From a virus, in the UHGV virus genome UHGV-0106768: a DNA stretch of 44,108 nucleotides; one strand, given 5' to 3'. The notes under the pieces are model-generated. The model made no database searches. It had not been told where the DNA came from and saw only the letters and a list, made by a program, of their open reading frames with translations. Position numbers and translations under genes: made by a program. Each line of letters starts with the position of its first letter. The stretch's first letter is position 1. Of this stretch, positions 2,675 to 38,132 are shown piece after piece.

Positions 2675-3397
2675 ATGGAAAACGTGAATGTTCAGAATGC
2701 TGCCGCTATTACCGATCAGACCACACTCGGAGAACTGCTTGCAATGCTTGACCTCGCTGATAAGGCAGGCAAGATGCCGACACCGAGAGAACTGTTTGAG
2801 ACCGCCGGTGAGACGATTGCCGACATGAACGGCTGCACGCTCTTCAGCAACGGGTTCGCTGTCTACCAGAATATCACCGGACGTACTGTTGTCTGGCTGC
2901 CTTACTGTAAGAGCTTCACCTATTACTTCGGCAAGCTCCGTGATTCCGAGAAAGACACGCTGACAGAGACCTATGAGCTGCCGGATGGATTTCTGGAAAC
3001 ACAGCCGTGGGTGATCGCAGTAACACTGATCGGCGACCATCGTGTGGAGGCAAACAGCATGAACCGCACCGGCAGCCGCAAGGATACCACAGATTATGAC
3101 AGCGCCGATAACGGCGATAAAGACGGTGATGCAGAGGAGGCTTTGGCAGATCCGTATCGCAGGGCATTCAACTGGTATGACGGACGCATGGGCGAGAATC
3201 CGCAGGATGCCGTGGAGCGCAGAGAGACACGCGAGGAGATGCTTGCAGACATGACGGACAAGCAGCGTGAAGCCTTTATTATGTACTTCAGGGATGGTAT
3301 GACGCAGGAAGAGATTGCTTCATATATAGGGGTAAGCCGTGATTCCATAAATGACAGGCTTGAAGGTGCATTGAAAAAAGCAAAAAAATATTTTTGA
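2675..3397 (+). CDS. sigma-70 region-4-like HTH protein (putative phage transcription factor)
   Basis: ATG 2675 with AAAGGA RBS (ORF track starts at in-frame GTG 2648); C-terminus (REAFIMYFRDGMTQEEIASYIGVSRDSINDRLEGALKKA) resembles sigma region 4; no region 2 recognised. Confidence 0.5.
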   Translation: MENVNVQNAAAITDQTTLGELLAMLDLADKAGKMPTPRELFETAGETIADMNGCTLFSNGFAVYQNITGRTVVWLPYCKSFTYYFGKLRDSEKDTLTETYELPDGFLETQPWVIAVTLIGDHRVEANSMNRTGSRKDTTDYDSADNGDKDGDAEEALADPYRRAFNWYDGRMGENPQDAVERRETREEMLADMTDKQREAFIMYFRDGMTQEEIASYIGVSRDSINDRLEGALKKAKKYF

Positions 3398-12806: not shown

Positions 12807-12902
12807 CAATATACAGTCTGTATGATCCACCCCTTATTGACGACAGGAAGACGGCAAAGCGGCGACAATTCGGTTACGCCGCAAACCACGGAGGTGAAAA
12901 CT

Positions 12903-13388
12903 ATGGCTCGTAAGAACAAACGCCTAAAAACAGAATACCACAGAGGGCTCGGCTTTGATCCGAGAAAATATATTACGGCACCGGTGCAGCACCACACCAT
13001 CGCTCACAAGCCGCAGCGCGGTGACATCTGGTTTGCGGATCTTGGCTGTCATCCGGATTCCAGCGTGCAGAGCGGCATCCGTCCGGTTATCATTCTCTCG
13101 AATGATATGGGCAATGCACACGCCGACACGGTCAATATCATTCCCATGACGCGGCATCTGAAAAAGCCGGAGCTGCCGTGCCATACGCATCTGTTCCCCG
13201 ACAGTATTTCCGATCTTCATCAGCATCTATATCCGTCCATGATCCTGGCGGAGCAGCTCACGACTGTCAGCAAGCATGCGCTTCGCAGCTATGCCGGACA
13301 TATCTCGGACGCCGATGCGATGAACCGTATTGAAACCGCTGTCATTGCACAGCTTTTCATTGAAAGGAGACATTCCGAATGCCTGTAA
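12903..13388 (+). CDS. MazF/PemK-like endoribonuclease-fold protein with ~38-aa basic N-terminal extension
   Basis: RGDIWFADLG...GIRPVIILSND...VNIIPMT pattern; GGAGGTGA RBS 5 nt upstream of ATG 12903. Confidence 0.65.
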   Translation: MARKNKRLKTEYHRGLGFDPRKYITAPVQHHTIAHKPQRGDIWFADLGCHPDSSVQSGIRPVIILSNDMGNAHADTVNIIPMTRHLKKPELPCHTHLFPDSISDLHQHLYPSMILAEQLTTVSKHALRSYAGHISDADAMNRIETAVIAQLFIERRHSECL

Positions 13389-22320: not shown

Positions 22321-23592
22321 ATGAAAACAGCAGAACTTCGCATGATCCCTGTCTCGGAACTGAAGCCTGCGGAATACAACCCGCGTAAAAAGCTGAAGCC
22401 CGGCGACAAGGAATACGAGAAGATCAAAAACAGCATCGAGGAATTCGGTTTTGCCGACCCTTTGGTAGTCAACGCCGATATGACCATCATCGGCGGACAT
22501 CAGAGACTGACCGTAGCGATGGCGCTCGGCTACACGGAAGTTCCGTGTGCGGTGGTAGACATCGACAAGGTTCGTGAGAAGGCACTGAACATCGCACTGA
22601 ACAAGATCACGGGTGCGTGGGACGAGAACCTTCTTGCTGAACTTCTGGAGGATATTCAGAACAGTGATTTCGATCTTGGCAAGACCGGCTTTGACCCGCC
22701 GGAGATCGAGCAGCTTTTCAATCAGGTACACGATAAGCAGGTCAAAGAGGACAGCTTCGATGTGGAGGAGGAGCTTCAGAAACCGACCTTCTCTCAGCCG
22801 GGAGATACCTGGATCCTCGGCAGGCACAGAGTCATCTGCGGCGACAGCACAGTTGCGGAGACATACACAAAGCTGATGGACGGACAGAAAGCAAATCTCG
22901 TCCTGACGGACCCGCCTTACAATGTGGATGTTGAGGAGACCGCCGGCAAGATCATGAACGATAACATGAGCGACAGCGATTTCTACAACTTCCTGCTTGC
23001 CGCCTATAAGTGTATGTATGACAGTCTTGCCGATGACGGCAGCATCTATGTATGGCACGCCGACACCGAGGGGCTGAATTTCAGAAAGGCATTCAAGGAC
23101 GCAGGATTCCAGCTTTCCGGCTGCTGTATCTGGAAGAAGAATTCGCTGGTGCTCGGGCGCAGTCCTTACCAGTGGATCCATGAACCGTGCCTGTTCGGCT
23201 GGAAGCAGAAGGGCAAGCATCAGTGGTACGCCGACCGCAAGCAGACGACCGTCTGGGAATACGACAAGCCGAAAAGCAGTCCCGATCATCCGACCACAAA
23301 GCCCATCCCGCTGATGGCGTACCCGATCAAGAACAGCACCATGACAAACGGCATCGTCCTCGATCCATTTCTCGGCTCTGGCTCTACGCTGATCGCCTGC
23401 TGTGAGACAGACCGTGTCTGCCGGGGCATCGAGCTTGACCCGAAGTTCGTGGATGTCATCGTGAAACGTTACCTCGCATGGTGTCAGGAGAAGCAGACCG
23501 CAGAGGTCGCATATGTTCTCCGTGACGGCCAGAAGCTGTCATACGAGGAAGCGATTGCAGTAATGCCGCAGGACGGTGATGCTGTTGAGTGA
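22321..23592 (+). CDS. ParB-like N-terminal domain fused to N6-adenine/N4-cytosine DNA methyltransferase
   Basis: ParB-N-like GGHQRL; MTase motif IV DPPY before motif I LDPFLGSGST (beta-class order); GGGAGGGA RBS. Confidence 0.8.
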   Translation: MKTAELRMIPVSELKPAEYNPRKKLKPGDKEYEKIKNSIEEFGFADPLVVNADMTIIGGHQRLTVAMALGYTEVPCAVVDIDKVREKALNIALNKITGAWDENLLAELLEDIQNSDFDLGKTGFDPPEIEQLFNQVHDKQVKEDSFDVEEELQKPTFSQPGDTWILGRHRVICGDSTVAETYTKLMDGQKANLVLTDPPYNVDVEETAGKIMNDNMSDSDFYNFLLAAYKCMYDSLADDGSIYVWHADTEGLNFRKAFKDAGFQLSGCCIWKKNSLVLGRSPYQWIHEPCLFGWKQKGKHQWYADRKQTTVWEYDKPKSSPDHPTTKPIPLMAYPIKNSTMTNGIVLDPFLGSGSTLIACCETDRVCRGIELDPKFVDVIVKRYLAWCQEKQTAEVAYVLRDGQKLSYEEAIAVMPQDGDAVE

Positions 23593-24352
23593 AGTAAAAT
23601 GCGTTCTCATACACGACAATTTCCAGAATTACAAGGGCTACAGCATTCCGAGGGCACAGCTCGTCATTGCGGATATCCCGTATAACATTGGCGGAGATTT
23701 TTACGCAAGTCGCCCGGACTGGTATGTGAATGGCGACAATCAGAACGGCGAAAGCAGCAAAGCGCACAAGGCGGCATTCCACACGGACTACTCTTTCAAC
23801 ATCGCTGAGTATTTCGCATTCTGCAACCGACTGCTCAAAAAGGAACCGTCCAAAGGTGAAAAGGATGCTCCCTGCATGATCATGTTCTGCGCCTTCCAGC
23901 AGATCCCGGAGGTCATCCGGCAGGCGGAGAAATAAGGCTTCAAGCACTACCAGTTTTTATGCTTTATGAAGAACTACAGTCCGCAGGTGCTGAAAGCAAA
24001 CATGAGGATCGTTGGTGCTACCGAATATGCGCTGGTGCTGTATCGGGGCAAGCTGCCGAAGTTCCGCAATACCGATGCGGACGGCAAGCGGCACATGATC
24101 TTCGACCATTTCGACTGGGTGCGGGACGGCAAAGATATCCCGAAGATACATCCAAGCCAGAAGCCGGTGAATCTGCTGAAGCGCCTGATTGGGATATTTA
24201 CCGATGAGGGCGATGTGGTCATCGACCCCTGTGCGGGTTCAGGAAGTACACTGAGAGCCGCAAGAGAAATGGGACGCAACAGCTACGGCTTTGAGGTCAG
24301 CAGGGATTTCTATACCAAAGCCCGTGAGCAGATGCTCGGAGGTGCGGAATGA
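23579..24352 (+). CDS. N6/N4 DNA methyltransferase interrupted by in-frame TAA at 23933-23935
   Basis: Motif IV DIPY upstream of the stop; HPSQKP and motif I IDPCAGSGST downstream; same frame, continuous protein-like read-through (AEK * GFKHYQFLCFMKN). Confidence 0.65.
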
Positions 24353-26848: not shown

Positions 26849-26925
26849 GCTGTTCTGTATGGGCTTTCCGTGATATGCACAATCTCAGGGGCGTAAAAGC
26901 CCCGTACACTCTACGATTTACAGTC

Positions 26926-26954
26926 TTGATATATCCGCCGTAATGGCGTAATAT
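26926..26954 (+). promoter_or_regulatory. sigma-70-type promoter P1 (TTGATA-17-TAATAT)
   Basis: Consensus-like hexamers with 17-bp spacer ~55 nt upstream of ATG 27011. Confidence 0.6.
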
Positions 26955-27010
26955 GTGACTACCGCAAGGGAAAACCGAGCGGAATCAAAAACGAAACGGA
27001 GGATTCACAT

Positions 27011-28132
27011 ATGAAAACTTATGCAATGATCATTGGAAACCGCAAGGAACTCACAAAGAGAATCGAGGCACTCACCGGAGAGCGCAGCGTATACACCTTC
27101 ATGCCGAGATGCGCCTATGAGATCGGGGCATTCGCAGTCGAGAAGGACGGCACACTTACGGCACAGGACGATGCCGACCAGAGCGTGATCGACACCCTGA
27201 GAGCCGAGGGTATGATCGGTGGTGAGATCATCGCAGAGAGCATCAAGGCAGTCGAGCCGGAGCAGACCGATGAGACCGCAGAGCCGGAACAGCCTGCACC
27301 GCCCGTAAGCACCGATGAATGGGACGATGATGAGGATGACGACGATGAGAACAGCGTCGAGGGCGAGAATGCGGAAGCGGAAGAGCCGGAGGAGTCCGAA
27401 GAAAATGCCGATAAGTCGGAGCCTTCCGCAGAGCCAGAAGCCGCACCTCCTGCGACCGAGGATGCCTGGGATGATGAACCGGAGGATGAACCCGGCGACG
27501 AGCCGGAAGAAACCACCGAGCTTCCTGAACCGCTGACCGCAGAGATCAGCTTCCCGCTGAGCCATCACACGGTGCAGAGCCTTACAAACCTCATCTGCAT
27601 GATCCACTCCCGCGGCGCACTTCTCAGCAAGGCAACCGGCGGACAGTTTTACGCTGACAAGAGCCTCGCCGATGCGATCCTCGATGACAAGACCTTCCGC
27701 AGCATTCACGAGCTGATCGCCTACATCAGAGAATGGGAGGAGACGAATCCTGAACTGAAGGGCATCCGCTTCGCCGATGACAAGCTAATCTTTGACGGCT
27801 TCGGTGCAGCGCAGGATGCCGAAACGGTGCAGACCTTCACCAAGCTCGCCACAGCCATGAACAGGATGGCGATCACGCAGAAACGTGTGCAGGCAAAGGA
27901 TGTCGATGACAGCAACGAAAAGTACGCACTCCGCATCTGGCTGATCCGCCTTGGGCTGAACGGCGCAGACTGCAAGGTTGACCGCAAGCGCCTCATGGCT
28001 CCGCTTTCCGGACACACCGCATTCCGCAACGATGCGGAGCGTGTGCGCTGGGAGGCAAAGCAAAAGGCAAAGCGTGATGCTGCCAGAACCGAACTGACCG
28101 AGGAGGATGAAAACGATGCAGTTTCCGAATGA
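27011..28132 (+). CDS. acidic protein with amidoligase-like C-terminal module
   Basis: 373 aa; long D/E-rich tract (DEWDDDEDDDDENSVEGENAEAEEPEESEEN...); C-terminal ~70 aa align with the C-terminus of the 28562 amidoligase. Confidence 0.6.
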   Translation: MKTYAMIIGNRKELTKRIEALTGERSVYTFMPRCAYEIGAFAVEKDGTLTAQDDADQSVIDTLRAEGMIGGEIIAESIKAVEPEQTDETAEPEQPAPPVSTDEWDDDEDDDDENSVEGENAEAEEPEESEENADKSEPSAEPEAAPPATEDAWDDEPEDEPGDEPEETTELPEPLTAEISFPLSHHTVQSLTNLICMIHSRGALLSKATGGQFYADKSLADAILDDKTFRSIHELIAYIREWEETNPELKGIRFADDKLIFDGFGAAQDAETVQTFTKLATAMNRMAITQKRVQAKDVDDSNEKYALRIWLIRLGLNGADCKVDRKRLMAPLSGHTAFRNDAERVRWEAKQKAKRDAARTELTEEDENDAVSE

Positions 28133-28364
28133 AAGACAGCTCAGAGCCTTGCGGGAGCGTTATCCCGCAGGAACCCGCATCCGACTGAAGCATATGGATG
28201 ACCCTTATGCACCCGTACCGCCCGGCACGGTCGGAGAGGTTCAGATGGTCGATGACGGCGGCAACATACACATGGTCTGGGAGAATGGCAGAACGCTCTC
28301 CCTTATAGACGGTGTCGATGATTTCCAAGTCATTTCTGACCGCAATGGGGGCTCCGGAAAATAA
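28116..28364 (+). CDS. DUF4314-like small protein
   Basis: MQFPNERQLRALRERYPAGTRIRLKHMDDPYAPVPPGTVGEV...; GAGGAGGA RBS 9 nt upstream of ATG 28116. Confidence 0.5.
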   Translation: MQFPNERQLRALRERYPAGTRIRLKHMDDPYAPVPPGTVGEVQMVDDGGNIHMVWENGRTLSLIDGVDDFQVISDRNGGSGK

Positions 28365-28477
28365 GAGATCCTATTCCATTGTATCCGAGTATACCATAGA
28401 ATTTCAAGTATATCAAGTGTACACATACACCAGATATGAGCAATGTATTTTCCTCGATATTCTGTGGTTTTAGCGGC

Positions 28478-28506
28478 TTGCTATATCCTCCGAAAGACGG
28501 TAACAT
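28478..28506 (+). promoter_or_regulatory. promoter P2 (TTGCTA-17-TAACAT)
   Basis: Same architecture as P1; followed by conserved leader with GGGC-AAAC-GCCC hairpin. Confidence 0.6.
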
Positions 28507-28561
28507 GTGACACAACGGAAGGGCAAACGCCCACCGAAAAACCGAATCGGAGGATACCAAA

Positions 28562-29506
28562 ATGACTGAGAAAACCGCACAGCAGATCAACAGAATGAAG
28601 GAGCAGACCATCGGGGTTGAGATCGAGATGAACAACATCACCCGCAAGGCTGCCGCAAAGCTCGCCGCCAACTTCTTCGGCACCAGCCGCACCGAGTACA
28701 CCGCACACCGCAACGGCTACGAAACCTACAGCGCATGGGATGCACAGGGCAGAGAGTGGAAATTCCAGAAGGACGTCAGCATCGCAGGCCCCGACAGCGA
28801 AAAGTGCGAACTGGTCACACCGATCCTGCACTACGCAGACATCGAAACCCTGCAGGAGCTTGTGAGAAGGCTCAGAAAGGCAGGAGCGCGCAGTGATTAC
28901 ACGCGGGGATGTGGAGTCCACTGCCACATTGGAGCCCAGGGACACACACCGCAGACCTTGAGAAACCTCGCAAACCTGATGGCAAGCCACGAAACCCTGA
29001 TCGCCGAGGCAATCAGAGTAGACCAGAGCAGAATGCGCCGCTACTGCAGAACAGTTGACCCGAGATTCCTTGAACAGCTCAACCGCAAAAAGCCCACCAC
29101 GATGGCACAGCTTGCGGACATCTGGTACGGCGCACAGGGCTGCGAATACGGCAGAACCCACCACTACAACGACAGCCGCTATCACATGCTCAACCTCCAC
29201 GCTACCTTCACCAAAGGCACGGTCGAGTTCAGACTTTTCCAGTTCGCACCGCCTTCCAACGGCAAGCAGAACGGGCTCCACGCAGGCAAGCTCAAGAGCT
29301 ACATTCAGCTCTGCCTCGCAATGAGCCAGATGGCAAAGGACCTGCGGAGCGCCAGCCCCAAGGAACAGCAGAAGGAAAACAAAAAGTTCGCCATGCGGAC
29401 TTGGCTGATGAGAATGGGATTCATCGGGGACGAATTCGCAACCGCAAGGGAAACCCTCACCGAGAACCTTACAGGCGACAACAGCTTCCGCTTCGGCAGA
29501 CCTTAA
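28562..29506 (+). CDS. Amidoligase_2-family enzyme (glutamine-synthetase-like amidoligase)
   Basis: N-terminal IGVEIEMN motif characteristic of the family; 314 aa. Confidence 0.65.
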   Translation: MTEKTAQQINRMKEQTIGVEIEMNNITRKAAAKLAANFFGTSRTEYTAHRNGYETYSAWDAQGREWKFQKDVSIAGPDSEKCELVTPILHYADIETLQELVRRLRKAGARSDYTRGCGVHCHIGAQGHTPQTLRNLANLMASHETLIAEAIRVDQSRMRRYCRTVDPRFLEQLNRKKPTTMAQLADIWYGAQGCEYGRTHHYNDSRYHMLNLHATFTKGTVEFRLFQFAPPSNGKQNGLHAGKLKSYIQLCLAMSQMAKDLRSASPKEQQKENKKFAMRTWLMRMGFIGDEFATARETLTENLTGDNSFRFGRP

Positions 29507-29709
29507 AGCCTGCCCTGCGGGGCGGAAGAACAAGCGGAACGTCACGGCGGCGCACACAGCACCCTCATCGCCACGTGTGGGGCGGAAGGGTATCCTCCGA
29601 ACACATACCCAACTCAGTCAACCGAGCCACACAGCGCAAATGTAGGCAAGGCATAAAATGCACAACATACGGCACAGAATCGCCCTCGATGATCTGTTCA
29701 TTTACTCGC

Positions 29710-29738
29710 TTGATAATGCCGCCGAAAAGAGTTAACAT
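29710..29738 (+). promoter_or_regulatory. promoter P3 (TTGATA-17-TAACAT)
   Basis: 17-bp spacing; upstream of ATG 29778. Confidence 0.6.
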
Positions 29739-29777
29739 GGCACTACCGCAAGGAAAAAACGCAAAGGAGAACATAGC

Positions 29778-30239
29778 ATGAACAAGAAAAAATACTACAT
29801 AGCCTACGGCAGCAACCTCAACATCCGCCAGATGCGGTTCCGCTGCCCAGGCGCAAAGCCCATCGGCATTTCCGCGATTCCTGACTACGAACTGCTCTTC
29901 AAGAGCAGCAAGACGGGAGCGTACCTCACCATCGAGCCGAAGGACGGCGGGCTTGTTCCGGTCGCCGTGTGGGAAGTGACAGCCGACGATGAGAAGCACC
30001 TCGACATCTACGAGGGCTACCCGAACTTCTACTACAAAAAAGAAGTACGCCTGCCGATCAAGCTGGCAAACGGCAAGACCAAAAAGGTCACGGCATTTGT
30101 CTACATCATGCACGAGGAGCGTGAGATTGCGATCCCGTCAATGACCTACATCCGCACCTGCGAGGAAGGCTACCGCAACTTCGGATTTGATGTGAAGTAC
30201 CTTGACAGGGCATACATGAGAAGCACAAAGGAGGACTGA
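29778..30239 (+). CDS. gamma-glutamyl cyclotransferase-like (AIG2/GGCT family) protein
   Basis: N-terminal YIAYGSNLN motif and EGYP motif. Confidence 0.65.
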   Translation: MNKKKYYIAYGSNLNIRQMRFRCPGAKPIGISAIPDYELLFKSSKTGAYLTIEPKDGGLVPVAVWEVTADDEKHLDIYEGYPNFYYKKEVRLPIKLANGKTKKVTAFVYIMHEEREIAIPSMTYIRTCEEGYRNFGFDVKYLDRAYMRSTKED

Positions 30240-30241
30240 AA

Positions 30242-30445
30242 ATGAAAGAACAGGTTTTTGAGAAGCGTACATGTCCGCAATGCGGACGCACCTACACCGA
30301 GCGTCCTGCCCTATCCCGCTACGACAACGACACGATCATCTGCCCGGACTGCGGCACGAGGGAGGCACTCGAAAGCATGGGCATCAGCATCGAGGAACAG
30401 GACAAGATCCTCGGCATCATCCACGAGAAGTACAACGGCGAATAA
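30242..30445 (+). CDS. small zinc-ribbon protein
   Basis: CPQCG...CPDCG; starts 3 nt after the GGCT stop (same operon). Confidence 0.55.
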   Translation: MKEQVFEKRTCPQCGRTYTERPALSRYDNDTIICPDCGTREALESMGISIEEQDKILGIIHEKYNGE

Positions 30446-30453
30446 GGCGACAT

Positions 30454-30475
30454 AAAGGGGCGTTACAGCCCCTTT
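30454..30475 (+). terminator. terminator hairpin (AAAGGGGC / GCCCCTTT)
   Basis: 8-bp GC-rich stem 9 nt after the stop; weak U-tract. Confidence 0.5.
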
Positions 30476-30517
30476 CCGCATTCTCAGGGATAACTTTATC
30501 CCCCACTTTCCGGGCGT

Positions 30518-30553
30518 GACACGGCGCGTTCTGGCGCAAACTGTGGGCTTGTG
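30518..30553. repeat. cassette boundary repeat, partial copy (i)
   Basis: Core GACACGGCGCGTTCTGGCGC...TGTGGGCTTG shared with copies at 32212, 33081, 34408. Confidence 0.5.
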
Positions 30554-30617
30554 TATATGTACCTGTTCAGCTTGCTGAAAACGGCGATTCTTCTACGATT
30601 TATTTTGCATATAGGCG

Positions 30618-30646
30618 TGGACATATCGCCGGGATCATGGTAATAT
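30618..30646 (+). promoter_or_regulatory. promoter P4 (TGGACA-17-TAATAT with extended -10 TG)
   Basis: Upstream of ATG 30705. Confidence 0.6.
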
Positions 30647-30704
30647 GCTACACAACGGCAGGGGCAGACAGCCCACCGGAATTCATAACATGGAGGATAC
30701 GAAC

Positions 30705-31175
30705 ATGAACGAAAGCTACTTTGAGGAGATGACCTTCCAGTGCGCCGCCTATGAACGCGCCAAAAAGGAGCGCGCCGAGCGCAAGGCTCAGATTGCCGAA
30801 GCCCACGGCTACGACAGCCCGGAGATGGACGCTTGGTACGCTGAGGAGAAGGCGGCGGGTCCTTACCCCTACAGCGGCGGTGAGATGAAAGCCTACTGGG
30901 TGTACAAGATGCGCCGCGAGAACGACGGTGACGAGTTCGAGATGAGCGATTACTGCTGGGACAAGGAATTCCACGATTTCATCGAAACGCTCCGCAAGCT
31001 AGGCATCACCGAGTTCACGATCACCAATCAGAGCACGGCGCTGATGGAGAACATCTACGGATTTATTGCAGAAGGCTGCACGATGGTCGGAACGCACACC
31101 ATCACCAAGAAGAGCCTGCGCTGGAGCGAGGAAGAATACGAAACGGCACAGGGCATCCTTTTCAAGGTGAACTGA
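30705..31175 (+). CDS. hypothetical protein
   Basis: ATG 30705 with GGAGGA RBS (in-frame ATG 30690 sits inside the RBS). Confidence 0.55.
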   Translation: MNESYFEEMTFQCAAYERAKKERAERKAQIAEAHGYDSPEMDAWYAEEKAAGPYPYSGGEMKAYWVYKMRRENDGDEFEMSDYCWDKEFHDFIETLRKLGITEFTITNQSTALMENIYGFIAEGCTMVGTHTITKKSLRWSEEEYETAQGILFKVN

Positions 31176-31183
31176 TATCGACA

Positions 31184-31220
31184 GGAGCAGGGCTTCGGCT
31201 CTGCTCCCCCTCCCCCTTTT
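31184..31220 (+). terminator. rho-independent terminator
   Basis: 10-bp stem GGAGCAGGGC / GCTCTGCTCC with TTCG loop, followed by CCCCCTCCCCCTTTTCC. Confidence 0.7.
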
Positions 31221-31293
31221 CCTCATGTGTAACTCCTACAATACGAAAGGCTGAGATCGGCGATTCTTCTACGTTTTATTTTGCACATAGGCG

Positions 31294-31322
31294 TGGACTT
31301 ATCAGCAGGATCATGGTAATAT
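31294..31322 (+). promoter_or_regulatory. promoter P5 (TGGACT-17-TAATAT, extended -10)
   Basis: Upstream of ATG 31378. Confidence 0.6.
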
Positions 31323-31377
31323 GTGACACAACGGAAGGGCAGAACGCCTACCGAAAAACGAAACGGAGGATAACACC

Positions 31378-31698
31378 ATGAACCCCTACACACTGAGAAA
31401 GAGCCTGAACCTGATTGATGCCAACACGGCGATCACCCGCGAGGACTTCGAGAGCCTCTTCTGCAAGACTGCAGAGCGTGTCACCTTTACCTTCAACGGT
31501 TGGGACGGCAAGAGCTATGATGGCGAGAGCCGCAGCGGTTACGTTTACCGCACCATCATCGAGGGCTACGAGAATGTGAGATTCGTTAAGGTCGGCAAGG
31601 GACTGCATTACATCGATGAGGACAGCAGCATTACCGAGAAGGCTACGGGCATCGCCCACAAGGAAGCAGAGTGGCTGGTCGATGTGAAGAGAGCATAA
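31378..31698 (+). CDS. hypothetical protein
   Basis: 106-aa ORF with ACGGAGGA RBS. Confidence 0.55.
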   Translation: MNPYTLRKSLNLIDANTAITREDFESLFCKTAERVTFTFNGWDGKSYDGESRSGYVYRTIIEGYENVRFVKVGKGLHYIDEDSSITEKATGIAHKEAEWLVDVKRA

Positions 31699-31763
31699 GC
31701 AAAACAGCGGAGCCCTTCCTGCGGGGAGGGCTTACCGCAGAAAAAACATGGAGGTTTACGAAC

Positions 31764-32147
31764 ATGAGTACGAATTCAAGAGTCGGAATCCTGCATCAGG
31801 ACGGCGCCACGGAGACAATCTACTGCCATTGGGACGGCTACCCCGAACACCAGATGCCCATCCTCACCGAGCATTATAACACCGCCGAGAAGGTCAAGGC
31901 ACTGCTTGCCCTTGGAGACATCAGCATCCTCGGCGAGCGCCTTGCTCCCGATGCGGATGAGCCGCACAGCTTTGAAAAGCCTGCCGATGGTGTGACGGTT
32001 GCTTACCACCGCGACCGCAAAGAGCCGATGCAGCCTGCGGTCACCCACAAGAGCGTTGTTTCCCTGATGAGCGATGACTGGGGCATTCCGTATTACTACC
32101 TTTTCGATGAGGAAAAAGGAGCATGGCTTCCGCCGACCGAGGACTGA
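31764..32147 (+). CDS. hypothetical protein
   Basis: ATG 31764; translation-initiation region AACATGGAGGTTTACGAACATG nearly identical to that of the 30705 gene. Confidence 0.55.
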   Translation: MSTNSRVGILHQDGATETIYCHWDGYPEHQMPILTEHYNTAEKVKALLALGDISILGERLAPDADEPHSFEKPADGVTVAYHRDRKEPMQPAVTHKSVVSLMSDDWGIPYYYLFDEEKGAWLPPTED

Positions 32148-32211
32148 TAGGTTCAGCCCTGCGGTGCTGACTTGCCCCACGTTGTCCTTTGTGCGGTTTT
32201 CCTGCGATAAG

Positions 32212-32269
32212 CTTGCCCCTGCGGAAAGCCGCCTCACACGGCGCGTTTGTGTGCCTCCTGTGGGCTTGG
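32212..32269. repeat. cassette boundary repeat, copy (ii)
   Basis: CTTGCCCCTGCGGAAAGCCGCCTCACACGGCGCGTTTGTGTGCCTCCTGTGGGCTTGG. Confidence 0.55.
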
Positions 32270-32327
32270 TGCTATGTATACAACAAATGGCGCAGATACG
32301 CCGATTTTGTTCTGAACATTTAGCCGC

Positions 32328-32356
32328 TTGCTATTCCGGAAAGATCATGGTAATAT
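32328..32356 (+). promoter_or_regulatory. promoter P6 (TTGCTA-17-TAATAT, extended -10)
   Basis: Upstream of ATG 32413. Confidence 0.6.
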
Positions 32357-32412
32357 GCTACACAACGGAAGGGCAAACGCCCACCGAATACAAAACACGG
32401 AGGTAAACCACC

Positions 32413-32778
32413 ATGACAAAGAAGGAAATGAAAGCCGCAGTTGACAAGCTGAAGATGCTGCAGAACGGCAAAGCCGCCCTTGAGGGAATGACCGAAGCGG
32501 ACTGCCTTGAGCTTTTCGGGATCAGCAGAGCGCAGGCACTTGCAAACACAAACGCCGCCCTTGCCAAAACCGAGCAGGAGATTTTCAGAGCCGAGCATCC
32601 GCTGACAGGCATCGACAAACAGCTCTTCGAGATCGCAGCAAAGCACCTGATCACGGTGCAGGAGCGCGGAGACCTTGAAGCCCGCCACTGCGACAGCGAG
32701 GACTTCATCGAGGTTTCGGTCTGGGGGCTGGAAGCCGCCCTCAAGGATGCCTACGAGGCAGGACGCAAGAGCAAGTAA
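32413..32778 (+). CDS. hypothetical protein
   Basis: 121-aa ORF with ACGGAGG RBS. Confidence 0.55.
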   Translation: MTKKEMKAAVDKLKMLQNGKAALEGMTEADCLELFGISRAQALANTNAALAKTEQEIFRAEHPLTGIDKQLFEIAAKHLITVQERGDLEARHCDSEDFIEVSVWGLEAALKDAYEAGRKSK

Positions 32779-32843
32779 CCAAACGGAACAGCGCAGCCCT
32801 TCCGCAGGGAGGAGGGGCTGCCAATCCCGAAGGAGGAAAGAAC

Positions 32844-33023
32844 ATGGATACATACGCACAGCTTGAAATGCTGACCGCAGTCATCGCAAACCTGTCGGCC
32901 ACGGGAACATGGACGGAGCGAGAAGTGATGGAAACGCTGCTGGATGTCTTTGAACCGAAGGAGCTTGAACAGCTCGGCTACGGCGACTGCGTGAACGCAT
33001 ACTTGGAAGAGTACGGCGGATAG
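32844..33023 (+). CDS. small hypothetical protein (59 aa)
   Basis: Below ORF-track cutoff; GAAGGAGGA RBS 7 nt upstream of ATG 32844; ends TAG 33021-33023. Confidence 0.4.
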   Translation: MDTYAQLEMLTAVIANLSATGTWTEREVMETLLDVFEPKELEQLGYGDCVNAYLEEYGG

Positions 33024-33080
33024 CGACGACACACGCACCACGTTGCCTCGTGTGGGGCGGTGCCGGGGAGATGCGTACAG

Positions 33081-33124
33081 CTTGCCCCTGCGAAAAGCCG
33101 CCTTACACGGCGCGTTCTGGCGCG
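33081..33124. repeat. cassette boundary repeat, copy (iii)
   Basis: CTTGCCCCTGCGAAAAGCCGCCTTACACGGCGCGTTCTGGCGCG. Confidence 0.55.
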
Positions 33125-33193
33125 TCCTATACGATGTACAATTCCGCCCGACTTCCCGCCTCATGTTTGTCACATTTATTTTGCAGACAGACG

Positions 33194-33222
33194 TGGACTT
33201 TTCTGCGAAAAGACGGTAATAT
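33194..33222 (+). promoter_or_regulatory. promoter P7 (TGGACT-17-TAATAT)
   Basis: Upstream of ATG 33270. Confidence 0.6.
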
Positions 33223-33269
33223 GTGACTACCGCAAGAGAAGCGGAATCAATCAAAAGGAGCGAATCTAC

Positions 33270-33623
33270 ATGAAAATTCTGGTATGCGAACCCGGCAAGC
33301 ACCCCTACGTCAAGGACATCGAGTCGGGGCTGGAGAACCTTCAGCACGAGGTGGACGGACTGATTCAGGCCCTCTACCCATTTTCCGAAGAGGCGGCTGT
33401 TGTGTGCAACGAAGAAGGGCTGTTCCGCGATGACCTCGAATGGAACAGAACGGTCGATCCCTATGGTCCGATCAAGGGAACATTCTTCATTTGTGGGCTC
33501 GGCTTTGAAGATTTTACAGGACTGACCGATGAACAGATCGAAAAGTACACTAAGCTCTTCTGGCCTCCTGAGCTTTTCATCCCGACACCGAACGGCATGG
33601 TGGTGCTTCACATTGTGGAATGA
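33270..33623 (+). CDS. DUF3846-like protein
   Basis: MKILVCEPGKHPYVKDIESGLENLQHEVDG...VVCNEEGLF pattern; AAAAGGAG RBS. Confidence 0.55.
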   Translation: MKILVCEPGKHPYVKDIESGLENLQHEVDGLIQALYPFSEEAAVVCNEEGLFRDDLEWNRTVDPYGPIKGTFFICGLGFEDFTGLTDEQIEKYTKLFWPPELFIPTPNGMVVLHIVE

Positions 33624-33631
33624 CCGCAACA

Positions 33632-33655
33632 GGGGCAGGGCTTCGGCTCTGCTCC
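33632..33655 (+). terminator. terminator-like hairpin (near-duplicate of the 31184 stem)
   Basis: GGGGCAGGGC / GCTCTGCTCC with TTCG loop, 9 nt after the stop; no clear U-tract. Confidence 0.45.
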
Positions 33656-33726
33656 GCACCATTCCCCGGTCATAATGTACACAACTGAACGCCGAAAAAT
33701 GCAGAAATGATCGTGATTACTCACGC

Positions 33727-33755
33727 TTGATAATGTAGGCAAGAAGAGTTATACT
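33727..33755 (+). promoter_or_regulatory. promoter P8 (TTGATA-17-TATACT)
   Basis: Upstream of ATG 33813. Confidence 0.6.
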
Positions 33756-33812
33756 GTGTACAACGGAAGGGCGGAAAGCCCAGCCGAAAACGAAAATGCG
33801 GAGGTACACACC

Positions 33813-33992
33813 ATGAAAACGAAGCAGGAACTGATCGAGAAGGCAAAGAAAGAGTGGGGCGAGACTTGGAACGAGGGCATGATCGAGTACGATGCCGAGT
33901 ACAACGAGTACATCGTCTGGGTAGGCAAGCCGGACATCTACAAAGCCTTCTTCGATGCCGACACCCTCAGATGCATTGGCACGAAGTGCTGA
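33813..33992 (+). CDS. small hypothetical protein (59 aa)
   Basis: ATG 33813 with GCGGAGG RBS. Confidence 0.45.
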   Translation: MKTKQELIEKAKKEWGETWNEGMIEYDAEYNEYIVWVGKPDIYKAFFDADTLRCIGTKC

Positions 33993-34047
33993 GAACAACC
34001 GCCGCCCTTCGGGGCGGCACAACACCAATACTAAGGAGGACATTTAC

Positions 34048-34321
34048 ATGAGCGAGAACACAGAAAAGCGCGATGCAGCCGAAGAACTAAGAACTTACCG
34101 ATGCACAGGCAGACCGCAACGATGACATCTACGAGGCAGCTTTTGAATTCTGCAAGGTGCTGACCGAGAACCCCGACCTCGAATGGGACATGGCGTTCCT
34201 CGGTGAGATCGCCGACCTTGCCGCTGGCATCATGACCGAGCAGGGACACAAGGTGCGGTTCCCCAGTGTGGTCACCGAGCAGGACGGCACGCAGTACATT
34301 GAAGAATACTACGGCGGCTGA
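34048..34321 (+). pseudogene. small gene disrupted by a 7-bp tandem duplication (frameshift)
   Basis: ATG 34048 with AAGGAGGA RBS; AAGAACT repeated in tandem at 34082-34095 shifts the frame; removing one copy gives a continuous ~89-aa ORF ending at TGA 34319-34321. Confidence 0.55.
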
Positions 34322-34407
34322 TCGGCAAAACGGAGCAGTCCTTCTGCGGAGGGGCTGTTCCACGCCACGTTCGCTTGTGTGGGGGGCTTACGGCTTTCTG
34401 CGGATAT

Positions 34408-34464
34408 CTTGCCCCGCGATAAAAGCCGCCCACACGGCGCATTTGTGTGCCTCCTGCGGCAAGG
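34408..34464. repeat. cassette boundary repeat, copy (iv)
   Basis: CTTGCCCCGCGATAAAAGCCGCCCACACGGCGCATTTGTGTGCCTCCTGCGGCAAGG; flanked by CTTGCC/GGCAAG inverted ends. Confidence 0.55.
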
Positions 34465-34522
34465 CATAATATGTACAACAACCGACAAAAAATCACCTTG
34501 CACATTCTGGTAGTTTAGCCGC

Positions 34523-34551
34523 TTGATATATCTGCCGAAAAGAGTTATAGT
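34523..34551 (+). promoter_or_regulatory. promoter P9 (TTGATA-17-TATAGT)
   Basis: Upstream of ATG 34608. Confidence 0.6.
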
Positions 34552-34607
34552 GTGTACAACGGAACGGGAAACCGAGCCGAAAACTACGAAAGAACGAGGT
34601 AAACACT

Positions 34608-34992: not shown

Positions 34993-35466
34993 ATGGCTCA
35001 GAGAGGCAGAAAACCAACGCCTACGGCGATCAAAGAGCTGGAAGGCAATCCGGGCAAGCGTCCGCTGAATGATGCAGAGCCGAAGCCGGAACGCAAGGCA
35101 CCGCCCTGTCCGAAGTGGCTGGAGCCCGAAGCAAAAAAGGAATGGCGCAGGCTGTCAAAGCAACTGGAGCAGATTGGTGTGCTGACCGAGGTCGATCAGG
35201 CGGCATTCGCATCCTACTGTCAGGCATACGCACGATGGAAAGAAGCCGAGGAATTCATGACCCAGCACGGCACGATCGTAAAAACAAAATCAGGTTACTG
35301 GCAGCAGGTTCCGCAGGTATCCATTGCGCAAACTTATCTGAAGATCATGAACAAGATCGCAGAGCAGTTTGGCCTGACCCCGGCGGCAAGAAGCCGTATC
35401 ACTGCCGGCGCAGATATGAAAAACGCTGCCGTTGACGATATGGATGAACTTCTCGGAGGTGGCTGA
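34993..35466 (+). CDS. terminase small subunit (P27 family)
   Basis: GRKPTPTAIKELEGNPGKRPLN...AFASYCQAYARWKEAEEF...FGLTPAARSRI pattern; GGAAGGAG RBS; in-frame ATG also at 34987. Confidence 0.75.
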   Translation: MAQRGRKPTPTAIKELEGNPGKRPLNDAEPKPERKAPPCPKWLEPEAKKEWRRLSKQLEQIGVLTEVDQAAFASYCQAYARWKEAEEFMTQHGTIVKTKSGYWQQVPQVSIAQTYLKIMNKIAEQFGLTPAARSRITAGADMKNAAVDDMDELLGGG

Positions 35467-38132
35467 TGGCGAGAACGGCAAAGGCAAGAGAAAGACCTGC
35501 CAACTATCCGAAACTGAAGGATTATAAACCGACACGCTTTATGCTGCCGGAATCGCACTACGATGCGGCAAAGGCTGACCGAGCTGTGCGGTTCATCGAG
35601 AATCTCTGCCATACCAAAGGACGCTGGGCAGGCAAACCGTTCTGGCTGCTTCCGTGGCAGGAACAGATCATCCGGGATATTTTCGGCATCGTCAAAGAGG
35701 ACGATATGCGGCAATTTCGTACCGCCTATGTCGAAATTCCAAAGAAAAATGGGAAGCAGCTTGCACTGGATACACCGATCCCGACTCCGCAGGGATTCAC
35801 CAATATGGGAGATCTGAAGGTCGGAGATACAGTATTCGATGAAAACGGCATTCCGTGCCATGTGGTTGCGAAAAGTCCTGTGGATGATACAGAGCAAGCC
35901 TACAAGCTGACCTTCAAGGACGGCACCTCGATCATTGCCGGGGAAAGGCATCTGTGGAACTGTCAGTATATTTACGGCAAACGCAAGGATGTTCTCTGGA
36001 CGACCGGCGAGATCTATCGCAGGACAACGGAATACAGACAGCGTTTTTCCGACAGACCACAGACAAAGCGGGATTCCCTTATCCGAATTCCGGTGTGCGG
36101 TGTCCTTCAGACAGAAGCGGCAGTTTTACCGATTGATCCGTATCTGTACGGCTACTGGCTCGGAAACGGTAATGTGACCATGCCGGAGATCACTGTTCGG
36201 ACGGAGGATGTCGAGGATATCATCTCGAATATTCCGTATAAGGTACACAACCGTTATCCGCAGAAATGCGGCGGCAGTGAGATCATAAAGTACAATGAAC
36301 TGAAAGCAGTACTACTTGACAGCTTCCGTGAAAAGAAGATCCGACCAGAATATCTGAGGGCATCCGCAGAGCAGAGATGGGCATTACTGCAAGGGCTTAT
36401 GGATTCGGACGGCTGTATCGGTGAACGCAAAGGGCAAAGTGTGTATGTCACAACGCTGCGAGAGCTGGCGCTTTCCGTCAGAGAACTGCTGTGGTCACTC
36501 GGCATCAAAAATGCAGTGAAATGTGAGCCTTCTACACGGCATGGGTGGCCGACCGGCGAGATTTTGTATATCGTCCGTTTTACAACCTTTGATGACCAAC
36601 CGACATCAAGGCTTAAACGCAAAAATACACGCACACAGGCGCGGTTAAAGGAAACTCGCTCCTGTTTTCATTATCTGCTGGATATTCAACCTGTAAATCA
36701 TCCTGTAAAAATGCAGTGCATTCAGGTGGACAGTCCGAGTCACCAATATCTCGCAGGACCGTCATTTGTGCCTACGCACAACAGTGAGCTTGCAGCGGCA
36801 ATTGCACTGTATCTGCTCTACGCCGACAACGAGCCGTCTGCTGAGGTCTACGGCGCTGCTGCTGATCGTGGGCAGGCATCCATTGTATTCGATGTCGCCA
36901 AAAGAATGGTTGAGATGACACCGGCACTTCTGAAACGCTCAAAAATCATGGCGGCGACAAAGCGTCTGGTGAATTACAGTAATGTTGGCTTTTATCAGGT
37001 GCTTTCAGCGGAAGTCGGTACAAAGCACGGATTGAATGTATCCGGTCTGGTTTTGGATGAACTTCATGCCCAACCGAACCGCAGCCTTGTGGATGTTCTC
37101 ACAAAGGGTTCCGGTGATGCCCGTACTCAGCCGCTGTACTTCCTGATCACAACCGCCGGAACGGATCGCAACAGCATCTGCTACGAGTATCACACGAAAG
37201 CAAAAGATATTCTGGACGGCAGGCGCATTGATCCGTCCTTCTATCCTGTGATCTACGGCTTGAACGATGATGACGACTGGAACGCAGAGGAGTCATGGTA
37301 TAAGGCAAATCCCTCGCTCGGATACACTATCGCCATCGACCGAGTCCGCGATGCTCACCGGGAAGCCCTTACAAATCCCGCTGAAGAAAATGTATTCCGT
37401 CAGCTGAGGCTTGACCAGTGGGTAGGCAGTGCGGTGGCATGGATTCCGGAGCATATCTACGACAGGGGCAATCTTCCGATCGACCTCGAAAAGCTCCGGG
37501 GACGGGAGTGCTACGCAGGTCTTGACCTATCCAGCACATCGGATATCACGGCATTTGTGCTGGTGTTCCCTCCGCTGCATGACGGCGAGAAATACATCGT
37601 TGTCCCGCACTTCTGGCTGCCGAGAGAAACGCTCGATTTACGAGTACGGCGAGACCATGTTCCCTACGATGTATGGGAGCGCATGGGATTATTTCATATC
37701 ACCGAGGGCAATGTGGTCGATTACAATTTCGTGCGGAAAACGATCAACGAGCTGCACACGATGTACAACATCAAGGAAATTGCTGCCGACCGCTGGAATG
37801 CCACACAGCTTATCACAGACCTTGAGGGAGACGGATTTACCGTTGTTCCGATGGGCATGGGCTTCAAGGATATGTCCCCGCCGATGAAGGAACTGTACAA
37901 GCTCATACTCGAAGGGCAGTTTATCCACGGCGGCAACCCTGTACTCCGCTGGATGGCAGGAAATGTGGTCGCTGAAATTGATGCAGCGGAGAACATCAAA
38001 CCAAGTAAAAAGAAAAGTACAGAAAAGATTGACGGTATCGTGGCATGGATCATGGCACTTGACCGCTGCATCCGCCACGAAATGCAGGGCAGTGTCTATG
38101 ACGAACCCGGCCACGATCTTGTGGTCATCTGA
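35466..38132 (+). CDS. terminase large subunit, intein-containing
   Basis: Walker A KKNGK split from SELAAAIALYLLYAD by an insertion; downstream Walker B-like LVLDELHAQ, ITTAGTD, nuclease-domain motifs. Confidence 0.85.
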   Translation: MARTAKARERPANYPKLKDYKPTRFMLPESHYDAAKADRAVRFIENLCHTKGRWAGKPFWLLPWQEQIIRDIFGIVKEDDMRQFRTAYVEIPKKNGKQLALDTPIPTPQGFTNMGDLKVGDTVFDENGIPCHVVAKSPVDDTEQAYKLTFKDGTSIIAGERHLWNCQYIYGKRKDVLWTTGEIYRRTTEYRQRFSDRPQTKRDSLIRIPVCGVLQTEAAVLPIDPYLYGYWLGNGNVTMPEITVRTEDVEDIISNIPYKVHNRYPQKCGGSEIIKYNELKAVLLDSFREKKIRPEYLRASAEQRWALLQGLMDSDGCIGERKGQSVYVTTLRELALSVRELLWSLGIKNAVKCEPSTRHGWPTGEILYIVRFTTFDDQPTSRLKRKNTRTQARLKETRSCFHYLLDIQPVNHPVKMQCIQVDSPSHQYLAGPSFVPTHNSELAAAIALYLLYADNEPSAEVYGAAADRGQASIVFDVAKRMVEMTPALLKRSKIMAATKRLVNYSNVGFYQVLSAEVGTKHGLNVSGLVLDELHAQPNRSLVDVLTKGSGDARTQPLYFLITTAGTDRNSICYEYHTKAKDILDGRRIDPSFYPVIYGLNDDDDWNAEESWYKANPSLGYTIAIDRVRDAHREALTNPAEENVFRQLRLDQWVGSAVAWIPEHIYDRGNLPIDLEKLRGRECYAGLDLSSTSDITAFVLVFPPLHDGEKYIVVPHFWLPRETLDLRVRRDHVPYDVWERMGLFHITEGNVVDYNFVRKTINELHTMYNIKEIAADRWNATQLITDLEGDGFTVVPMGMGFKDMSPPMKELYKLILEGQFIHGGNPVLRWMAGNVVAEIDAAENIKPSKKKSTEKIDGIVAWIMALDRCIRHEMQGSVYDEPGHDLVVI
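35757..36782 (+). mobile_element. class-3-like intein (342 aa) with LAGLIDADG homing-endonuclease domain inside terL
   Basis: Starts QLALDTPIPTPQGF (Gln, not Cys/Ser/Thr); block B HLW; block F Cys (MQCIQVD); ends FVPTHN followed by Ser; LAGLIDADG-like LYGYWLGNGN and LLQGLMDSDG; excision restores EIPKKNGK-SELAAAIALY. Confidence 0.7.

Follow-up and report, generated by a model that had tools for sequence, protein, structure and literature searches.

The whole stretch of DNA analysed here (the window) comprises 44,108 nucleotides of the virus genome UHGV-0106768, a 'Candidatus Heliusvirales'-type siphophage of rumen and gut Clostridia. At positions 28562–30445 it carries genes for an Amidoligase_2 enzyme (the amidoligase), a gamma-glutamyl cyclotransferase (GGCT) and a small Cys4 zinc-ribbon protein (ZnR). 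An earlier note, made from the letters of the sequence, had proposed that one of the two enzymes forms gamma-glutamyl or amide bonds and that the other cleaves them. Our comparisons of sequences and predicted structures agree with this proposal: the fold neighbours of the amidoligase (glutamate–cysteine ligase/YbdK, glutamine synthetase and PafA/Dop) and the recurrence of the pair in unrelated elements both point to it, and the amidoligase and GGCT appear to be a genuine functional pair. Together with ZnR and two genes upstream, an amidoligase paralogue and a DUF4314 gene, they are predicted to form a module of five genes. With slightly better than even confidence, we read the pair as the Firmicute-phage version of a gamma-glutamyl amide enzyme pair of mobile elements, which would reversibly gamma-glutamylate a cytoplasmic amine. 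The enzyme pair itself is an already known prediction and is named automatically by PHROGs/Pharokka; the find is thus a correctly spotted case of a catalogued, automatically annotated gene pair, not a new kind. The window covers 44 kb, part of the phage genome, and the gene absences given below hold for the window only.

All three open reading frames (ORFs) lie on the plus strand exactly where the earlier note had placed them (Table 1). The amidoligase, which the note had recognized by the string GVEIEM, carries IGVEIEMNN at residues 17–25 and matches Pfam Amidoligase_2 (PF12224) with 190 bits (E 8.7e-56, cut-off 22) over profile positions 1–244 of 245, as well as phrog_2443 ('amidoligase enzyme', E 1e-112). 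In an alignment of 58 representatives with 36–65% identity, E20, E22, E83, H120, H122, R157, R206, H213, E222 and R224 (each conserved in at least 90%) and D71 are near-invariant. This set of acidic, histidine and arginine residues (ExE, E, HxH, R and ExR) is, as judged from the alignment, of the kind expected for a metal and ATP site. The AlphaFold2 (AF2) model, with a predicted local distance difference test (pLDDT) of 96.4 and a predicted template-modelling score (pTM) of 0.94, compares with the catalytic fold of glutamine synthetase and glutamate–cysteine ligase. Its neighbours in the fold comparison are plant glutamate–cysteine ligase (2gwc, score 13.9), a YbdK-like protein (1tt4, 13.8), GshAB and GshA (13.1 and 12.5), glutamine synthetases (about 11), Dop (10.9), PafA (10.4), and two glutamine-synthetase-like amine ligases, namely 1-naphthylamine glutamine synthetase (10.8) and gamma-glutamylmethylamide synthetase (9.8). 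In each of these named enzymes the amide that is formed or broken involves the gamma-carboxylate of glutamate, which most of them activate in an ATP-dependent manner; this shared site of action fits a GGCT partner. The Amidoligase_2 family comprises about 3,900 clusters at 50% identity, and among its long representatives no informative domain fusions were found except a DUF6262 fusion and a 956-amino-acid protein with an unassigned C-terminal part.

The GGCT gene encodes the motif YYIAYGSNL (YIAYGSNL in the note) and matches GGACT with 49.1 bits (cut-off 22.8) and AIG2_2 with 30.8 bits (cut-off 27) (PF06094 and PF13772), phrog_2520 (E 5e-53) and human GGCT (2pn7, E 1e-6). Residues Y10-G-S-N-L14 and E79 align with their counterparts in the human enzyme, E79 with the catalytic E98, and both YGSNL and E79 are invariant among 125 orthologues. 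The active site is therefore predicted to be intact and the protein to be a cyclotransferase. The check by profile hidden Markov models that the note had recommended thus places both enzymes above the curated cut-offs of their families. The ZnR protein contains a CxxC...CxxC arrangement in which C11, C14, C34 and C37 are invariant (111 orthologues), and its alignment shows two further conserved motifs, PALSR-DN and ICPDCGTREAL; against Pfam and NCBIfam zinc-ribbon models, all matches fall under the cut-off, and the protein is a member of a separate phage family, phrog_2945. Only 2 nt separate the GGCT stop codon (TGA, 30237–30239) from the ZnR ATG at 30242, with AAGGAGGA immediately 5' of that ATG, a spacing that bears out the direct coupling of the Cys4 gene described in the note and suggests translational coupling.

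Linkage of the five genes was counted in related loci with enough flank, 58 anchored on the amidoligase in bacterial genomes and 48 anchored on GGCT in IMG/VR viral sequences. GGCT and ZnR are present in all loci of both sets, the amidoligase in 58 and 46, the paralogue in 55 and 46, and DUF4314 in 51 and 45, always between the paralogue and the amidoligase. The order paralogue–DUF4314–amidoligase–GGCT–ZnR is kept in 49 genome loci and 45 viral loci, and ZnR follows GGCT in every locus of both sets (58/58 and 48/48), with median gaps of 9–25 nt. Across loci the median identity is 76% for the amidoligase versus 62% for the large terminase subunit (TerL), which indicates that the amidoligase is more strongly constrained than the terminase. 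The pair is thus near-universal in Heliusvirales-type phages and their relatives in genomes of rumen and gut Clostridia, and more conserved than the terminase. The arrangement is not rigid: GGCT lies upstream of the amidoligase in four loci (L003–L005 and L011), where the linkage survives the reordering, the paralogue lies downstream of GGCT in a distant relative (L002), and other cassettes, such as a DUF6900-like ORF, can sit between the amidoligase and GGCT.

The pair also recurs outside this lineage. The Pseudomonas podovirus LUZ24 encodes an Amidoligase_2 protein (gp18), a class-II amidotransferase (gp19) and a GGACT-type protein (gp22), and Arthrobacter phage Laroye has GGACT (gp97), amidoligase (gp98) and class-II amidotransferase (gp99) genes in succession (PMC5513430). 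In another phage the 956-amino-acid amidoligase fusion is followed by a GATase_6 protein. Class-II amidotransferases (Ntn-hydrolases) and GGCT-fold enzymes both cleave gamma-glutamyl or glutamine amides, so that the alternation of the partner between these two folds indicates the same type of bond. In a metagenomic conjugative-element-like locus (L165), the stop codon of an amidoligase with 38% identity to that of the window is overlapped by a tandem double-GGCT gene, and the neighbours include genes for a single-stranded DNA-binding protein (SSB), an RNase T-like exonuclease, a DUF3991-Toprim primase and TrbC-like proteins. The double-GGCT protein (L165 4142–5371, 409 amino acids) has an acidic, Tyr-rich linker between its two domains and belongs to the same AYGSN.../YEGYP subfamily as the GGCT of the window. 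Annotated runs that look like the arrangement in the window include 'virulence-related protein / amidoligase / AIG2' in Clostridioides difficile Tn6164, annotated in 2012 (PMC3485107), and 'amidoligase ORFs 35, 37 + GGCT ORF 39' in prophages of C. clostridioforme (PMC11318856). A plasmid collection yielded four weak records, all of them paralogue-like matches to a 'virulence-related protein', and the enzyme pair is not a common plasmid trait. Judged by sequence, at least four unrelated types of element, from three host phyla, carry the pair, with divergent subfamilies of both enzymes. This recurrence, the linkage retained after reordering, the like chemistry of the two partner folds and the constraint on the amidoligase together argue that the amidoligase–GGCT core is a functional pair.

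The three-gene extent given in the earlier note holds for the genes that it named and misses the paralogue and DUF4314 upstream. The paralogue has no Pfam match and scores 120 bits against the amidoligase PHROG; in an HHalign comparison of 109 of its orthologues with 116 amidoligases, residues 174–342 align with residues 116–313 of the amidoligase (probability 99.8%, E 8.5e-28). The profile–profile comparison indicates that the motifs HxH, HHYNDSRYH and EFR are lost, and the N-terminal half fails to align with the ExE-bearing part of the amidoligase. The AF2 model has two well-folded parts (residues 1–73 and 175–367) in which strands and helices follow one another much as in the amidoligase, joined by a D/E-rich linker (about residues 77–170, window 27240–27520) that is predicted to be disordered, with pLDDT below 50. 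From sequence and model, the protein is predicted to be catalytically dead. The linker varies in length or is absent among relatives (orthologues span 214–373 amino acids), and could be a nucleic-acid mimic or a mere linker. In several relatives the query matches in two pieces, and a split amidoligase or an intron was considered and rejected, as the pieces are the paralogue and the true amidoligase with DUF4314 between them.

The paralogue ends in a conserved tail, [D/N]-[A/E]-[V/I]-S-E, which reads DAVSE in the window (codons 28115–28129). Among 109 unique orthologues, 79 (72%) end in Glu and 71 in SE, against a background of 13% Glu-terminal ends for 1,914 ORFs of the same loci; the tail is absent in the distant relative L002. 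A C-terminal Glu is acted on by PafA (in Pup), RimK (in S6) and TTL (in tubulin), and by analogy the tail may serve the ligase as a substrate or pseudo-substrate. ZnR also ends in Glu in 62 of its 111 orthologues (56%), with otherwise variable tails. The DUF4314 gene starts 26 nt before the end of the paralogue gene; the literature search found no mention of the DUF4314 protein, and a ubiquitin-like Gly-Gly tail on it was rejected, with GG ends in only 10 of 86 sequences and no consistent pattern. None of the five proteins has a hydrophobic segment, and all are predicted to be cytoplasmic; the amidoligase and GGCT are basic (isoelectric points 9.0–9.5), and the paralogue and ZnR acidic (4.3–4.9). 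The paralogue, DUF4314 and ZnR appear, by their distribution, to be accessories specific to the Heliusvirales-type lineage.

In the reading that we favour, the amidoligase would most likely activate the gamma-carboxylate of glutamate with ATP and join it to a cytoplasmic amine, giving gamma-Glu-NH-X, as suggested by its fold and conserved residues. GGCT, given its intact YGSNL/Glu active site, would cyclise the glutamyl moiety to 5-oxoproline and free the amine, and the two activities together could constitute an ATP-driven, reversible gamma-glutamylation of an amine. Our guess at the target, a speculative one, is a small molecule or peptide, for instance a polyamine or a cell-wall or peptide precursor, rather than DNA; the purpose might be host takeover or the establishment of an incoming element. 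The paralogue would probably act as a partner, a regulator or a substrate-presenting subunit, and its ...V-S-E tail could dock in the active site of the ligase. The position of the pair beside the SSB and primase genes of L165 hints, speculatively, at a function during the entry of DNA into a new cell. Nucleotide signalling had been raised in the earlier note as another target, and we found nothing to support such a link. Identifying the gamma-glutamylated amine would decide a prediction dating from 2009, and would show if a chemical strategy for cell takeover or entry is common to unrelated phages and conjugative elements; the five-gene architecture, the pseudo-ligase partner and the C-terminal Glu tail offer concrete experimental handles.

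Several points weigh against this reading. If the two enzymes act on one bond, their net effect would be to turn Glu into 5-oxoproline at the expense of ATP, a futile reaction of unclear benefit. In the glutamyl moiety, GGCT-fold enzymes need the alpha-amino group to be free, which narrows down the substrate without identifying it. The linkage counts were obtained largely within a single syntenic phage lineage (TerL 54–100% identical) and could, taken by themselves, reflect descent. Amidoligase_2 genes with neither GGCT nor class-II amidotransferase as a neighbour occur in three contexts (P0204, P0209 and P0269) and in phage Pioen. The larger podovirus cassettes contain two more ligases, so that the overall function of the minimal pair may differ from theirs. 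Searches of PDB sequences with the amidoligase alone and with its 58-member family profile yielded no solved structure, which leaves fold comparison as the only route to its relatives, and the literature searched contained no enzymatic assay of any Amidoligase_2 member. In one of the contexts named above (P0209), the locus L172 encodes a 474-amino-acid amidoligase with an N-terminal extension, beside convergent genes for a TIR-domain protein, a Tpt1/KptA-like RNA 2'-phosphotransferase and a RyR-domain protein, a neighbourhood that is conflict-system-like.

ZnR is not strictly bound to the enzyme pair. A homologue lies in the early region of Faecalibacterium phage Mushu (L164 1986–2237), which has neither amidoligase nor GGCT there, and phage Pioen has an unrelated small zinc-ribbon ORF (L176 5305–5550) three genes downstream of an amidoligase that lacks a Pfam-detectable GGCT. 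These two contexts indicate that the zinc-ribbon family is not strictly tied to the pair, and ZnR is a lineage-specific accessory.

The pairing of an amidoligase with a cyclotransferase was reportedly predicted from comparative genomics by Iyer 2009, and Hardies 2013 is said to have done likewise. The Pfam description of PF12224 reportedly gives members two kinds of neighbour, a glutamine-amidotransferase-like peptidase (Proteobacteria) or an Aig2-family cyclotransferase (Firmicutes). An independent earlier prediction likewise has such enzymes 'metabolizing gamma-glutamyl amide linkages' (PMC4819975), PMC5498523 and PMC10580990 carry the pair prediction and trace it to Iyer 2009, and as of 2023 the functions 'remain to be explored' (PMC10580990). 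The Firmicute neighbourhood of PF12224 is exactly the amidoligase plus AIG2-family cyclotransferase pairing seen in the window, with the difference that the papers label the upstream gene merely 'hypothetical/virulence-related protein' or 'amidoligase enzyme'. In the literature searched, no paper calls that gene a dead paralogue, notes its C-terminal tail, or counts DUF4314 or the zinc ribbon in the module. The pseudo-ligase with its conserved tail, DUF4314, the zinc ribbon, the five-gene architecture and the repeated promoter cassettes appear to be undescribed there.

The cassette of LUZ24-, phiEco32-, PaP3- and RIO-1-like podoviruses resembles the module in that an Amidoligase_2 gene and a GGCT-fold gene are clustered in a phage (in an early/middle operon in LUZ24), with the making and breaking of gamma-glutamyl amide bonds as their predicted task (PMC4819975). 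It differs in three respects: it further encodes a RimK-like ATP-grasp enzyme, a COOH-NH2 ligase and a class-II amidotransferase, for which the Pfam and PHROGs scans of the window ORFs gave no counterpart; its enzymes belong to distant subfamilies, with a YGTL-type GGACT instead of the YGSNL-type GGCT of the window (BLAST E 0.045 and 0.011); and it lacks the pseudo-ligase paralogue, DUF4314 and the phrog_2945 zinc ribbon. The absence of the ATP-grasp, COOH-NH2 ligase and class-II amidotransferase genes means that the module is not the full five-enzyme podovirus cassette. Pathways of amine gamma-glutamylation (PuuA/PuuD for putrescine, gamma-glutamylanilide synthase/hydrolase, GmaS and EgtA/EgtC) and BtrJ/BtrG of butirosin biosynthesis differ in two ways: intermediate enzymes act on the protected amine, none of which is evident in the window, and the amine pathways are cellular catabolic or biosynthetic operons, whereas the module of the window is mobile-element cargo. 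BtrJ, furthermore, has an ATP-grasp fold, in contrast to the glutamine-synthetase-like amidoligase.

A role in counter-defence is one use to which such chemistry might be put. The module would then be an establishment or anti-defence device, in which the ligase and the dead paralogue, with its tail in the active site, gamma-glutamylate a host amine or protein lysine and GGCT resets or limits the modification; a polyamine restraining phage DNA, or an effector or signal of immunity, would be among the conceivable targets. If so, it would represent a new class of phage counter-defence chemistry, common to gut siphophages, Pseudomonas podophages, actinophages and conjugative elements. We consider this unlikely. 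PADLOC-DB v2 gave no matches for four of the five module proteins and, for ZnR, only spurious weak matches to the zinc-ribbon parts of Cas12 models, and the literature search found nothing linking an amidoligase to anti-defence or to plasmid leading regions.

Modification of the cell wall or surface, as proposed by Iyer 2009 and Hardies 2013, also seems improbable to us. Gamma-glutamyl or unusual peptidoglycan-precursor linkages would be remodelled such that other phages are excluded from the infected or lysogenic cell. The idea is repeated, as a prediction, for the podovirus cassette in PMC5498523, PMC11945000 and PMC10580990, which cite Iyer 2009. It is textbook knowledge that peptidoglycan stem peptides hold a gamma-D-Glu linkage, and also that prophage genes behind promoters of their own, like the sigma-70-like promoter of each cassette here, are often expressed in lysogens. 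However, the alpha-amine of D-iGlu in the stem peptide is blocked, which makes cyclisation by GGCT impossible without prior cleavage, and the ATP-grasp, COOH-NH2 ligase and class-II amidotransferase genes behind the argument from 'three unusual linkages' are those missing from the window. The predicted cytoplasmic location of all five proteins fits poorly too, and superinfection exclusion is less obvious in the conjugative-element-like locus L165, where the pair adjoins SSB and primase genes.

The C-terminal Glu of the paralogue raises the question of Pup-like tagging, in which the ligase would use that residue (perhaps also that of ZnR) as the carboxylate for conjugation to target lysines, or would extend or modify the tail, with the dead paralogue as a Dop/PafA-like partner. 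We regard this as distinctly unlikely. The tail is missing in L002 and carries no GG[EQ] signature: paralogue tails end in ...[AE][VI]SE, those of ZnR are variable, and DUF4314 has no consistent GG. The paralogue has lost rather than retuned its catalytic residues, a proteasome or ARC partner is absent from the module, and the universal partner is instead GGCT, which cannot act on a peptide-bonded Glu. The module is accordingly not a member of the pupylation systems (PafA, Dop and Pup).

Equally doubtful is a two-component amidotransferase, in which GGCT or a class-II amidotransferase would draw on glutamine or another gamma-glutamyl donor to free ammonia or an amine, for the ligase to install on an ATP-activated carboxylate of another substrate. 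A class-II glutamine amidotransferase is the classical ammonia-donating partner of synthetases, and such a domain is the ligase's neighbour in the phage with the 956-amino-acid fusion, in Laroye and in LUZ24 (gp19). As GGCT and the class-II amidotransferase are both present in Laroye and LUZ24, they are no simple substitutes for each other. To our knowledge, however, no GGCT-fold enzyme uses glutamine as an ammonia donor; the structural neighbours of the ligase all activate glutamate itself rather than a foreign carboxylate, and no channel-forming fusion was seen.

Hypermodification of DNA is very unlikely. The ligase would here decorate an amino-bearing modified base of the phage and thereby help it to evade restriction, a role that the literature offers as a possibility (PMC8989533). 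Some viral contigs hold amidoligase and amidotransferase genes alongside genes of thymidine hypermodification (PMC8989533). The module does lie directly downstream of C5 and N6 methyltransferase genes, in the window and in relatives, and both enzymes are basic. On the other hand, no gene for 5-HMUDK, aGPT-Pplase, TET/JBP, dUMP hydroxymethylase or DpdA/Que occurs in the window, the neighbours listed for the pair in L165 include neither a methyltransferase nor a base-modification gene, and removal of the modification by GGCT would defeat its purpose. The last reading, that of independent accessory cassettes which are adjacent by shared descent in one phage lineage, is already disfavoured and scarcely credible: each unit in the window has its own promoter, the cassettes are shuffled with other genes inserted between them, ZnR stands alone in Mushu and some amidoligases lack GGCT, yet the pair recurs across element types and host phyla, its genes overlap in L165, its linkage outlasts a change of order, and the predicted chemistries are complementary.

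With respect to transcription, the five genes of the module appear to form three similarly promoted units, paralogue plus DUF4314, amidoligase, and GGCT plus ZnR (Table 1). The promoter that the earlier note had placed before GGCT is indeed present, as a promoter-like site. The word operon that it used for its three genes applies in part: in the window these genes belong to two transcription units, whereas in about half of the relatives the gap between the amidoligase and GGCT is 150 nt or less and contains no promoter-like motif (0 of 53 unique gaps), with a GC-rich hairpin in its place. Among gaps of 151–400 nt, the type found in the window, 29 of 42 unique ones have a promoter-like motif (about 1% expected by chance), and the internal promoter is a trait of a sub-lineage. 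The hairpin of the short gaps (54–150 nt; L001, L030, L048, L064, L149 and others) is conserved and has a UUCG-type loop, for example CCGACCGCTTCGGCGGTC; it may be an element of RNA processing, stability or attenuation. A stable terminator 3' of the amidoligase was sought and rejected, as the fold there is no better than that of shuffled sequences. The stem-loop that follows ZnR is a possible transcript end or stabiliser, as suggested by its computed stability; it has no T-run, and the terminator scan did not call it.

Table 1 Genes of the module and associated signals, in window positions
Feature	Position	Strand	Evidence
Sigma-70-like promoter TTGATA-17-TAATAT and conserved leader, before the paralogue/DUF4314 unit	26926–26954	+	consensus 9/12
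Catalytically degenerate amidoligase paralogue (predicted), 373 amino acids	27011–28132	+	PHROG match, HHalign, AF2 model
DUF4314 small protein, 85 amino acids	28107–28364	+	Pfam DUF4314, 100 bits
Weaker promoter-like TTGCTA-17-TAACAT and leader, small GGGC/GCCC hairpin, GGAGG, before the amidoligase	28478–28561	+	consensus 8/12
Amidoligase_2 enzyme, 314 amino acids; predicted ATP-dependent glutamate-gamma-carboxylate:amine ligase	28562–29506	+	Pfam, PHROGs, fold
Sigma-70-like promoter TTGATA-17-TAACAT, before the GGCT–ZnR unit, in a 271-nt gap	29710–29738	+	consensus 9/12
Gamma-glutamyl cyclotransferase, GGCT/AIG2 fold, 153 amino acids	29778–30239	+	Pfam, phrog_2520, alignment with human GGCT
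Cys4 zinc-ribbon protein (ZnR), 67 amino acids, phrog_2945	30242–30445	+	phrog_2945, E 2e-22
Stable stem-loop, 8 bp with 6-nt loop, just past the ZnR stop codon	30454–30475	+	-16.8 kcal/mol, z -2.5 against shuffles

The module lies within a run of about nine small gene cassettes (window 26900–34600), in which a sigma-70-like promoter of a repeated type, with its conserved leader, stands before every cassette. The promoter follows the pattern TTGATA/TTGCTA-N17-TAACAT/TAATAT and the leader reads ACAACGGAAGGGCAAACGCCCACCGAAAAAC...GGAGG; within the window, copies are confined to 26.9–34.6 kb, and the element before the amidoligase is included in the repeat families D1, D2 and D4. The region looks like a modular, shufflable array of accessory genes, in which two other intergenic repeat families (D3 and D9) also recur. 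A known RNA element in the repeated leader was rejected, with no Rfam match and a fold of -11.6 kcal/mol that is not significant (z -1.5).

Pfam and PHROGs scans of the remaining ORFs identify the window as part of a tailed phage. Its nearest annotated relatives are 'Candidatus Heliusvirales' gut phages, a type described as widespread in the human gut (PMC11283538), and its nearest genomic copies are prophages of Ruminococcus/Oscillospiraceae genomes of rumen and gut origin. The window encodes proteins of replication type (DUF2800 nuclease, Enc34-type SSB, PolA, SNF2 helicase and D5-type primase), metabolic enzymes (MetK and NrdD/NrdG), a ParB-N6 methyltransferase and a C5 methyltransferase, and structural and packaging proteins (the small terminase subunit TerS, TerL, portal, ClpP protease and major capsid protein). 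The TerL ORF (35466–38132) encodes 888 amino acids, with LAGLIDADG_3 (residues 303–370) N-terminal to the matched ATPase part (442–580), which suggests an intein; in most relatives the TerL match spans about 1.3–1.4 kb (about 450 amino acids), and a few have similar 2.6-kb spans. Three genes are apparently broken into adjacent ORFs, namely phrog_4031 (105–1097 and 1134–2033), the DUF2800 nuclease (4391–5233 and 5363–5638) and an N6/N4 methyltransferase (23576–23935 and 23966–24352); frameshifts, decay or errors of assembly may be the cause. In the replication module, the SNF2 helicase and the D5-type primase flank an ORF (12822–13388) whose product has a PemK/MazF-like toxin domain. A protein with sigma-70 region 4 domains (2648–3397) is a candidate phage sigma factor; despite its presence, the repeated promoters of the cassette array resemble ordinary host sigma-70 sites.

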